Of a stretch of DNA of 64,000 nt, positions 58,627-60,384 are shown piece by piece. Each line of letters begins with the position of its first letter. The stretch's first letter is position 1. Source of the DNA: Escherichia coli (GTDB lineage Bacteria > Pseudomonadota > Gammaproteobacteria > Enterobacterales > Enterobacteriaceae). The translations under genes and the position numbers were made by a program. Under the pieces are notes generated by a model. The model ran no database searches, was not told the DNA's origin, and saw nothing but the letters and a program-made list of their open reading frames with translations. The stretch lies in the NCBI RefSeq assembly GCF_024298765.1, contig NZ_CP101210.1; one strand, given 5' to 3'.

Positions 58627-60384
58627 ATGAAAATGACTTTGCCGTTTAAACCCCATGTGCTGGCGCTAATTTGCAGTGCCGGGCTTTGTGCCGCCTCTAC
58701 CGGGCTATATATAAAAAGCCGCACAGTGGAAGCGCCTGTGGAACCGCAATCGACACAACTGGCTGCGCCTGACATCTCCGCAGTTACGCTTCCTGCAACG
58801 GTTTCCGTGCCTCCTGTAACACCTGCCGTCGTCAAATCCGCATTCAGCACTGCGCAAATAGATCAATGGGTTGCACCTGTCGCGCTATACCCCGACTCTC
58901 TGCTTTCACAAGTGTTAATGGCATCAACCTATCCGGCAAACGTTGCTCAAGCAGTGCAATGGTCGCACGATAATCCACTTAAACAAGGCGATGCTGCTAT
59001 TCAGGCGGTATCTGACCAGCCCTGGGACGCCAGCGTCAAATCACTGGTGGCCTTTCCACAGTTGATGGCATTGATGGGCGAAAACCCGCAATGGGTGCAA
59101 AACCTGGGCGATGCTTTTCTGGCGCAGCCGCAGGAGGTGATGGACTCGGTACAGCGATTGCGGCAACTGGCGCAACAAACCGGCTCGCTGAAGTCATCAA
59201 CTGAACAGAAAGTTATTACCACAACGAAGAAAGCTGTACCGGTAAAACAGACAGTCACGGCTCCCGTCATACCATCCAATACCGTTTCAACTGCCAACCC
59301 TGTCATTACAGAGCCTGCAACAACCGTCATTTCCATTGAACCCACCAATCCTGATGTGGTCTATATTCCCAACTACAAGCCAACCGTGGTTTACGGGAAC
59401 TGGGCCAATACTGCGTATCCGCCGGTTTATCTGCCGCCGCCAGCCGGAGAACCGTTTGTTGACAGCTTTGTGCGCGGATTCGGCTATAGCATGGGCGTTG
59501 CTACCACGTACGCGCTATTCAGCAGCATCGACTGGGATGACGACGATCATGACCATCATCATCATGACGATGATGATTATCACCATCACGATGGCGGTCA
59601 TCGTGATGGTAATGGCTGGCAACACAATGGCGACAACATCAATATCGACGTCAACAATTTCAACCGTATCACCGGTGAGCATCTTACTGATAAGAATATG
59701 GCATGGCGGCACAATCCAAACTACCGTAATGGTGTGCCCTATCATGATCAGGATATGGCAAAGCGGTTTCATCAAACCGATGTCAACGGCGGAATGAGCG
59801 CCACGCAGCTACCTGCTCCAACACGCGACAGCCAGCGTCAGGCGGCAGCAAGTCAGTTTCAGCAACGAACACACGCCACACCCGTCATTACGCGAGATAC
59901 CCAACGTCAGGCAGCGGCACAGCGGTTTAATGAAGCTGAAAACTATGGGAGCTATGACGACTTCCGCGACTTCAGCCGTCGCCAACCACTGACCCAGCAA
60001 CAAAAGGACGCCGCTCGTCAGCGTTATCAGTCGGCCTCTCCTGAGCAGCGCCAGGCAGTCCGCGAGAAAATGCAGACTAACCCGCAGATCCAGCAGCGAA
60101 GAGAGGCAGCGCGTGAGCGCATTCAGTCTGCAACTCCCGAACAGCGCCAGGTGTTTAAGGAAAAAGTACAGCAGCGCCCACTGAATCAACAGCAACGTGA
60201 TAACGCCCGCCAGCGTGTTCAATCAGCATCACCTGAGCAACGTCAGGTTTTTCGGGAGAAAGTTCAGGAGAGCCGCCCGCAACGTCTAAACGACAGTAAC
60301 CGTACTGCCAGGCTGAATAACGAGCAACGGTCAGCAGTACGCGAACGGCTGTCTGAACGTGGAGCAAGACGGCTGGAAAGGTAA
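58627..60384 (+). CDS. yacH: DUF3300-family secreted protein with Asp/His-rich tract and Gln/Arg-rich repeats
   Basis: 585-aa ORF with signal-like N-terminus MKMTLPFKPHVLALICSAGLCAAS; internal DWDDDDHDHHHHDDDDYHHHDGGH tract; three copies of an RQR-QSA(S/T)PEQRQ-(F/V)(R/K)EK-Q repeat. Confidence 0.85.
   Translation: MKMTLPFKPHVLALICSAGLCAASTGLYIKSRTVEAPVEPQSTQLAAPDISAVTLPATVSVPPVTPAVVKSAFSTAQIDQWVAPVALYPDSLLSQVLMASTYPANVAQAVQWSHDNPLKQGDAAIQAVSDQPWDASVKSLVAFPQLMALMGENPQWVQNLGDAFLAQPQEVMDSVQRLRQLAQQTGSLKSSTEQKVITTTKKAVPVKQTVTAPVIPSNTVSTANPVITEPATTVISIEPTNPDVVYIPNYKPTVVYGNWANTAYPPVYLPPPAGEPFVDSFVRGFGYSMGVATTYALFSSIDWDDDDHDHHHHDDDDYHHHDGGHRDGNGWQHNGDNINIDVNNFNRITGEHLTDKNMAWRHNPNYRNGVPYHDQDMAKRFHQTDVNGGMSATQLPAPTRDSQRQAAASQFQQRTHATPVITRDTQRQAAAQRFNEAENYGSYDDFRDFSRRQPLTQQQKDAARQRYQSASPEQRQAVREKMQTNPQIQQRREAARERIQSATPEQRQVFKEKVQQRPLNQQQRDNARQRVQSASPEQRQVFREKVQESRPQRLNDSNRTARLNNEQRSAVRERLSERGARRLER

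Follow-up and report, generated by a model that had tools for sequence, protein, structure and literature searches.

An Asp/His-rich tract in YacH, encoded by a 64,000-nucleotide stretch of the Escherichia coli genome (assembly GCF_024298765.1, contig NZ_CP101210.1; hereafter, the window), constitutes a real, conserved, and previously undescribed element, the kind of which is already known from the Asp/His-rich disordered loops of the metal-binding type. Because the alignment of its family and the AlphaFold2 (AF2) models agree, this tract is described here as a predicted disordered expansion of the turn of a conserved β-hairpin, and neither as a terminal tail nor as an interdomain linker. By analogy with other exported proteins, its most likely mechanism would be a multivalent, moderate-affinity binding of transition metals in the periplasm, a reading to which roughly an even chance of being correct is given.

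The yacH gene encodes 585 residues plus a stop codon (translation of 58627..60381, from the list of open reading frames (ORFs)), and is arranged in the window in the order acnB (−), yacH (+), lpdA (−), and aceF (−). The identical sequence in RefSeq—100% identity with E. coli strain 104—is named yacH, "DUF3300 domain-containing protein". Asp or His occupies 21 of the 27 positions of the tract, compared to 9.2% of the residues of the whole protein (binomial tail of 3e-17 per window), and the highest D+H count reached in 20,000 shuffles of YacH was 13. Of the 138 six-frame ORFs with 100 residues or more in the 64-kb window, none but yacH exceeds a D+H count of 9. The codons of the tract are GAY (Asp) and CAY (His), with the synonymous forms GAT/GAC and CAT/CAC mixed, and Tandem Repeats Finder (TRF) detects a period of 15 nt in addition to the 24-nt one listed in Table 1. 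The initial annotation of this DNA was exact regarding the start and the composition of the tract, but placed its end at 59607, one codon (3 nt) short of 59610; the codon-level repetition that it reported is present as described, including the (CAT)4 run. Two other ORFs that span the tract, 59336..59797 (+, 153 aa) and 59515..59775 (−, 86 aa), were rejected as by-products of the GAY/CAY repeat and are not plausible genes. The translations of such out-of-frame ORFs are rich in Ile, Met, Thr, and Val, as exemplified by MTTIMTIIIMTMMIITITM.

Table 1. Features of yacH and its product in the window, with the basis for each assignment.
Feature	Position	Strand	Basis
yacH coding sequence, DUF3300 family	58627..60384	+	ORF list, Pfam PF11737, RefSeq annotation of identical sequence
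Predicted Sec signal peptide, aa 1–24, MKMTLPFKPHVLALICSAGLCAAS	58627..58698	+	Kyte–Doolittle, AF2, family consensus; prediction only
All-helical N-terminal domain of DUF3300, aa 75–185	58849..59181	+	AF2 pLDDT 95–98; most nearly invariant columns
Strand S299–I301 plus D302–W303; W303 immediately precedes the hairpin turn	59521..59535	+	AF2, family conservation
Asp/His tract DWDDDDHDHHHHDDDDYHHHDGGHRDG, aa 302–328	59530..59610	+	Translation
Entire insertion, by comparison with canonical DUF3300 (aa 304–335), modelled as disordered	59536..59631	+	Family alignment, AF2
Imperfect 24-nt (8-codon) tandem duplication, DDHDHHHH / DDDDYHHH	59542..59588	+	TRF: period 24, 2.0 copies, 82% matches
(CAT)4 run, principal location of length changes by one codon (3–6 His residues in other E. 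coli)	59554..59565	+	Sequence, E. coli variants
Return strand of the hairpin, DNINIDVNNFN	59632..59664	+	Family consensus, AF2 strand 338–340
Conserved motif WRHNPNYRNGVPYHD (family consensus WxHxPxHRxGVPYRD)	59704..59748	+	Family consensus
Basic helical C-terminal region, aa 455–549, with three ~32-aa "SASPEQRQ" repeats of variable copy number	59989..60273	+	Sequence, AF2 helices 457–515

YacH matches the Pfam family PF11737 (DUF3300) with an E-value of 8.2e-78 and a score of 261 bits (cut-off of 25), over aa 75–333 and profile positions 2–227 of 227, whereas a search of NCBIfam with the protein matched no model. With HMMER, 9,382 relatives were found at E ≤ 1e-3 among 1.84 billion representative proteins, and 123 full-length representatives were aligned with YacH. 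In these 124 sequences, the residue corresponding to W303 is nearly invariant (at least 90% conserved). Among the 123 representatives, the spacer after this Trp usually comprises three residues (G 44%, H 21%, R 14%), such as GGG, GRG, GHN, HHG, or HRH, and is followed by a strand with alternating polar residues of the type D-[IV]-[DN]-[IV]-[DN]-V-N-R-Y-N, the pattern of the canonical hairpin being W-(G/H/R)x3-D-I-D-I-D-V. YacH keeps W303 and the DNINIDV strand; however, 32 residues instead of 3 separate W303 from DNINIDVNNFN (aa 336–346), and YacH together with its nearest relatives exhibits spacers of 21–32 D/H residues. On the basis of this difference in the length of the turn, YacH is considered to represent a variant DUF3300 subfamily restricted to Enterobacterales.

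The structure models draw the same picture. In the AF2 model of YacH, strands 299–301 and 338–340 and their surroundings reach a predicted local distance difference test (pLDDT) value of ~92, while aa 310–333 only reach 45–47. Structure prediction, which the initial annotation had proposed as a check, thus places the tract as a disordered segment between confidently modelled strands. In the model of the canonical member P0135, strands 248–251 and 256–260 flank W252-G-H-N with pLDDT values of 88–94, forming a tight β-hairpin. Searches of the PDB by sequence, either with the whole of YacH or with the tract alone, returned nothing useful, and no fold match was found in this database either.

Apart from this turn, canonical DUF3300 proteins and YacH share the N-terminal helical domain, the Y-x-P-x-Y-x-P-x-V-V-Y-G motif, the invariant Trp, the D-I-D-I-D-V-N strand, and the WxHxPxHRxGVPY motif, and they differ in that the canonical proteins hold a 3-residue G/H/R turn in place of the D/H tract. 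They also differ in their genetic neighborhood: outside Enterobacterales, a DUF2950 gene is often located directly after the canonical DUF3300 gene (as seen in locus L053, 3816–6336), an association that has been reported to be universal in rhizobia (PMC4653623), whereas in E. coli no such partner accompanies yacH, which is flanked by acnB and lpdA. At the site of the hairpin, some further DUF3300 lineages hold independent D/H/G-rich insertions, or His-alternating strands (HVHVHV), which hints that this hairpin may be a cation-facing site. The tract itself would have arisen in the YacH lineage of Enterobacterales, probably by codon slippage and duplication, for which the Asp and His codons that surround the turn in the canonical form (...C-D-W-G-H-D-D-I-D-I-D...) would have provided the starting material.

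The absence of the tract from functional orthologues had been proposed as an observation that would speak against a metal-binding or pH-sensing role, and the opposite was observed. A scan of one genome per species retrieved 37 loci, and the tract region could be read in 31 enterobacterial ones, all of which (31/31) hold a D/H tract of 16–33 residues after the Trp. The adjoining acnB and/or lpdA gene was confirmed for 29 of these 31 loci. The 31 loci belong to genera including Citrobacter, Salmonella, Atlantibacter, Kluyvera, Raoultella, Buttiauxella, Franconibacter, and Yokenella, as well as to several Escherichia species. The only non-enterobacterial locus of the scan exhibits GRG at the position of the tract. 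Compared to E. coli, AcnB and LpdA of those genomes are mostly 92–99% identical, while YacH is 57–69% identical. A second protein search, seeded with YacH from Rahnella, yielded 119 clusters—including Salmonella, Klebsiella, Enterobacter, Citrobacter (C. koseri), Hafnia, Leclercia, and Rahnella—and the tract is present in all of them (119/119), with a length of 11–41 residues (median of 25), a median D+H content of 61%, and at least three His residues. Across the orthologues, the exact sequence is not conserved, but the order of the blocks is: a D-run, an H-run, a D-run, a Y/W-H-run, and a G/N-rich end. No loss of the tract was found among the orthologues examined in three families of Enterobacterales. 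Two records encountered during these searches (the pair L048 and L051) look mislabelled or contaminated, namely a "Chryseobacterium sp. 18061" contig with an enterobacterial acnB–yacH locus, and a "Bordetella parapertussis" metagenome-assembled genome with a canonical (GRG) DUF3300 protein.

The selective regime of the tract was examined by Nei–Gojobori comparisons, in which the window allele was set against two others, namely L012, a deeply divergent allele from E. coli, and L019, from E. albertii. The proportion of nonsynonymous differences (pN) of the tract core (aa 304–321) is 0.063 versus L012 and 0.021 versus E. albertii, values close to those of the folded N-terminal domain (aa 75–190; 0.058 and 0.011, respectively). 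In contrast, the linker of aa 191–232 reaches 0.467 and 0.185, which is 7–9 times the pN of the tract core. The synonymous sites of the core are saturated, with 10 (L012) and 5 (E. albertii) differences on ~6 synonymous sites, and the few replacements observed in the tract are mostly D-to-H, D-to-N, or Y-to-N/H. A pN as low as that of folded domains, together with the saturated synonymous change and the retention of the tract, argues that it is under selection, and the mixture of synonymous codons marks it as old rather than as a recent pure repeat. By these measures, the tract appears as an old element in which the amino acid identities are maintained by purifying selection, and not as junk.

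Nevertheless, the length of the tract is plastic, as had been anticipated from its codon-level repetition. Of 5,426 complete E. coli genomes, 5,425 contain the gene, and 5,415 retain at least 80% of it. A 261-nt probe over the tract matched 5,416 records, from the ranking of which a systematic sample of 60 rows was taken. The modal length was found in 49 of these 60 rows; the remaining ones held −3 nt (1 row), +6 nt (6 rows, with ~546 records in the corresponding identity band), +24 nt (1 row, with ~89 records in its band), or −39 nt (2 rows), or were disrupted (1 row). Non-modal lengths (+2, +8, −1, and −13 aa) are therefore carried by about 15–18% of the complete E. coli genomes, and stem from the gain or loss of units of 3, 6, and 24 nt. 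The +6 nt form results from a duplicated CATGAC, and the +24 nt form from a third copy of the 24-nt unit, with L004 carrying an extra GATCATGACCATCATCATCATGAC unit; in the −39 nt form (L013), DWDDDDHDHHHRDG is left and the gene remains intact. Among 120 rare E. coli protein variants, both the His run and the Asp run vary from 3 to 6 residues.

Nearly all of these length changes are in frame. Two inactivating events, of a kind that is rare, are known to start in the tract: an 8-nt deletion in a Salmonella Typhimurium isolate (850_857delGATCATCA; PMC10048834), and a 164-nt inversion in locus L014, from the enterotoxigenic E. coli (ETEC) strain L3_E36_ETEC, that affects nt 965–1128 of the gene (equivalent to 59591..59754 in the window). 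In L014, yacH is annotated as frameshifted, and the left end of the inversion lies inside the D/H tract; its endpoints are presumably short inverted repeats of the ATCA(C/T)GAT type, unless the inversion is an assembly artefact.

Export of YacH is suggested by the N-terminus of the protein. The single membrane-like segment of YacH (Kyte–Doolittle value over 1.6) spans aa 11–29 (1.91), with the basic residues K2 and K8 and an A-A-S sequence before T25. In the AF2 model, a helix at residues 10–22 is followed by a disordered stretch, and the consensus N-terminus of the family is signal-like as well. A Gly-rich segment (aa 283–301) was considered as a transmembrane helix that would leave the tract in the cytoplasm, and was discarded, given its Kyte–Doolittle values of only 0.6–0.8 and the β-strands of the AF2 model. 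Export of YacH to the periplasm is inferred from these features, so that the description of YacH as a secreted protein in the initial annotation agrees with a signal-peptide-like N-terminus, but by prediction only. A PSORT-type assignment as "extracellular" has also been quoted for YacH (PMC9600279), and no study of the tract or of the localization of the protein was found in the searchable literature.

According to the metal-binding interpretation, the tract would be a flexible multivalent site in the periplasm, to which divalent transition metals (Zn, Ni, Cu, and Co) would bind with low to moderate affinity, and which would either capture or buffer the metal, or make the activity of YacH dependent on it. 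Binding of divalent metals, already put forward in the initial annotation, is favored by the analogy with the loop of ZnuA discussed below, but no convincing Zur, Fur, or NikR box precedes the gene. Several further points also weigh against metal binding. Any run of 4–6 His residues binds Ni or Zn in vitro, and for this reason in vitro binding alone would be no proof of a physiological role. The L013 allele is intact without 13 residues of the tract, and the full length of the tract is therefore not essential. The searchable literature yielded no study in which the binding of metals by YacH is measured. In the acnB–yacH intergenic region, the best matches by consensus scoring alone were 13/23 for Zur and 12/19 for Fur, neither of them convincing and no better than those at ~0.1–0.2% of the window positions, and consensus scans for NikR, CueR/ZntR, PhoP, and PmrA upstream of yacH gave weak matches only. 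The best CpxR-like sequence found there has 8 matches out of 10 (~58558). The yacH gene has been reported to be regulated by CpxR and repressed by protamine and cecropin A, and its deletion results in a better survival to protamine than that of the wild type (PMC9600279); furthermore, the gene is down-regulated in a rob mutant (PMC7537768). Neither the reported regulation of yacH (CpxR and Rob) nor its protamine phenotype is metal-related (PMC9600279, PMC7537768).

The same intergenic region (58290..58626), which separates divergent genes, also holds a palindromic GGTGATAATCACC element at ~58497–58509, and genomic SELEX (systematic evolution of ligands by exponential enrichment) has located a site for RpoF (sigma-28) in the interval that separates yacH from acnB (PMC5493296).

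In the main rival of metal binding, which could connect to the protamine phenotype, the tract would act as an electrostatic module or as a switch that responds to pH or charge, where an acidic segment is neutralized as its ~10 His residues are protonated. The initial annotation had also named pH sensing as a possible role. The change in charge would alter the contact with the basic C-terminal tail or with polycations (protamine, cecropin, or the Mg2+/Ca2+ of the envelope), and YacH would be gated by the external pH or by the load of cationic peptides rather than by transition metals. In a simple pKa model, the net charge of the tract goes from −10.5 at pH 7.5 to −4.9 at pH 6, −1.5 at pH 5, and +3.3 at pH 4, while that of the region from aa 400 to the C-terminus remains at ~+17. 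The improved survival of the deletion mutant and the fall of the yacH mRNA with protamine or cecropin (PMC9600279) point in the same direction, as does the preservation of both D and H with tolerated D-to-H swaps, as if net charge and titratability were what matters. However, blocks of consecutive His residues (HHH/HHHH), present in nearly all the orthologues, are more typical of metal sites, and the C-terminal tail differs greatly between genera, whereas the composition of the tract does not. A switch of this type is regarded as unlikely.

A neutral origin has been considered as well. An exposed turn would tolerate insertions, and the slippage of GAY/CAY codons would regenerate a low-complexity tract that does nothing specific. 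The polymorphism within E. coli and the range of 11–41 aa between genera are compatible with this explanation, as are the mapping of the changes to short direct repeats (CATGAC, the 24-nt unit, and (CAT)n), the intact allele that lacks 13 residues, the unrelated G/Y/N-rich insertions found at the same turn in other DUF3300 lineages, and the disorder of the tract in the AF2 model. Neutrality does not account, however, for a pN as low as that of the folded domains and much lower than in the remaining disordered linkers of YacH, with saturated synonymous sites, nor for the mixed synonymous codons of an old tract, nor for the lack of a single orthologue without it in three families of Enterobacterales. 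These selection and retention data disfavor neutral expansion, which appears improbable.

Finally, it is very hard to sustain that the tract is a contingency (phase-variation) repeat, the instability of which toggles YacH or alters an exposed epitope, for instance to evade phages or the host: the two inactivating events that begin in it (the Salmonella deletion, PMC10048834, and the ETEC inversion) and the unusual diversity of yacH within E. coli would be in line with this, but the repeats are short and imperfect, with (CAT)4 as the longest pure run, their triplet units hold the frame (+6, +24, −3, and −39 nt are all in frame), at least 80% of the gene is retained in 5,415 of the 5,426 genomes, and the common +2 aa form seems to be passed on among related alleles rather than to switch. 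The locus is thus classified from its sequence as not phase-variable.

The tract is not the most variable part of the protein. As judged from the alleles compared, the largest length variation of YacH resides in the 32-aa repeats of its C-terminal region and not in the D/H tract. The repeat unit, QQRR-AARERIQSASPEQRQ-VREKMQTNPQN, is present in three copies here (585 aa), four in K-12-type alleles (617 aa), and five in a 648-aa form. Lenient Pfam scans of the C-terminal half only returned sub-threshold matches (RskA_N, DUF3106, and DUF1104), and a relationship of the SPEQRQ repeats to LTXXQ/CpxP-like proteins was discarded as unsupported, given that the Pfam matches are sub-threshold. A third independent length-variable region is a 45-aa internal tandem duplication, APVITRDTQRQAAAQRFNEAEHYGSYDDFHDFSRRQPLTQQQKDA, carried by P0002-type E. 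coli alleles (662 aa) and equivalent to ~59890..60020 in the window.

Diversity at this locus extends to its nucleotide sequence, since most complete E. coli genomes are only 90–96% identical to this yacH allele. The L012 allele (strain AST85) exhibits saturated synonymous divergence, while the adjacent LpdA has the same accession in nearly all the compared strains (loci L001–L012). The fact that yacH is diverse next to a near-uniform LpdA suggests diversifying selection or imported alleles at yacH alone.

The relevance of the tract lies in the proteins that hold it: yacH is an E. coli core gene without an assigned function, and DUF3300 comprises thousands of members without a solved structure. 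The tract provides both this orphan core gene and its large family with a specific and easily testable biochemical hypothesis. Metal binding, if true, would be the first biochemical property described for the DUF3300 family, and could explain the link of yacH to Cpx envelope stress and to killing by cationic peptides. Otherwise, the tract would still represent a clean natural case of a disordered loop that is constrained in composition and plastic in length. A wider and quite doubtful proposal is that the DUF3300 hairpin in general—Trp, His/Gly turn, and alternating Asp/Asn or His strand—is a cation-binding site. In such a case, the family (over 9,000 clusters at 50% identity) would consist of exported metal-handling proteins, the site of Enterobacterales would be a high-capacity Asp/His "sponge", and YacH would couple periplasmic Zn/Ni/Cu or pH to the envelope charge and to the susceptibility to cationic peptides under the control of Cpx.

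Regarding known systems, low-complexity segments rich in His and Asp/Glu are found in the C-terminal tail of SlyD, in HypB, and in Hpn, where they act as moderate-affinity sites for several Ni or Zn ions. These segments are cytoplasmic, are connected with the maturation of hydrogenase or urease, and in many cases include Cys. They are usually terminal tails, unlike the internal hairpin loop of YacH.

A further comparison is with the small periplasmic zinc-trafficking proteins of the PA4063 type from Pseudomonas aeruginosa, which are exported, as is predicted for YacH, and contain His-rich loops. These loops are reported to be disordered in the apo form and to contribute to micromolar Zn sites (PMC8561739). 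PA4063-type proteins differ in their ferredoxin-like fold and in their induction by zinc limitation, features that YacH is not known to share.

The closest parallel is provided by ZnuA, from the zinc-specific cluster A-I of solute-binding proteins (SBPs), which, like YacH, is a protein of E. coli with a signal peptide (predicted in the case of YacH) and an Asp/His-rich disordered loop. In ZnuA from C. koseri, this His-rich loop is disordered in the crystal, and its deletion reduces the Zn content from at least three ions to one, the loop being needed for two extra Zn sites; its physiological role is debated, either as a chaperone that delivers the metal to the main site or as a sensor (PMC8900738). 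When the sequences are compared directly, the heptapeptide DDDDHDH is common to the YacH tract and to the His-rich loop of E. coli K-12 ZnuA (...DHHHGD), with SIDWDDDDHDHHHHDDDDYHHHDG as the YacH segment set against the ZnuA loop, and SI-x-x-DDDDHDH and (D/Y)HHH(G/D) occur as local motifs in both loops. A recent exchange of DNA between the two genes is ruled out by their differing codons and by a longest common run of 12 nt; therefore, the likeness between both loops is interpreted as convergent. YacH shares with the ZnuA-type loops a flexible, His- and acidic-rich segment (21/27 D/H, pLDDT 45–47), although its tract is longer and purer than that of ZnuA, with no Glu, Lys, or Ser block. In contrast, YacH lacks the SBP fold of cluster A-I, in which a primary His/Glu Zn site is present, is not known to have a primary high-affinity metal site, and matches no SBP family of Pfam (only PF11737); no ABC-transporter context and no convincing Zur box were found at its locus. 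The tract of YacH would work like the ZnuA-type loops but, given the fold of its host protein and its genetic context, is not itself a member of them.

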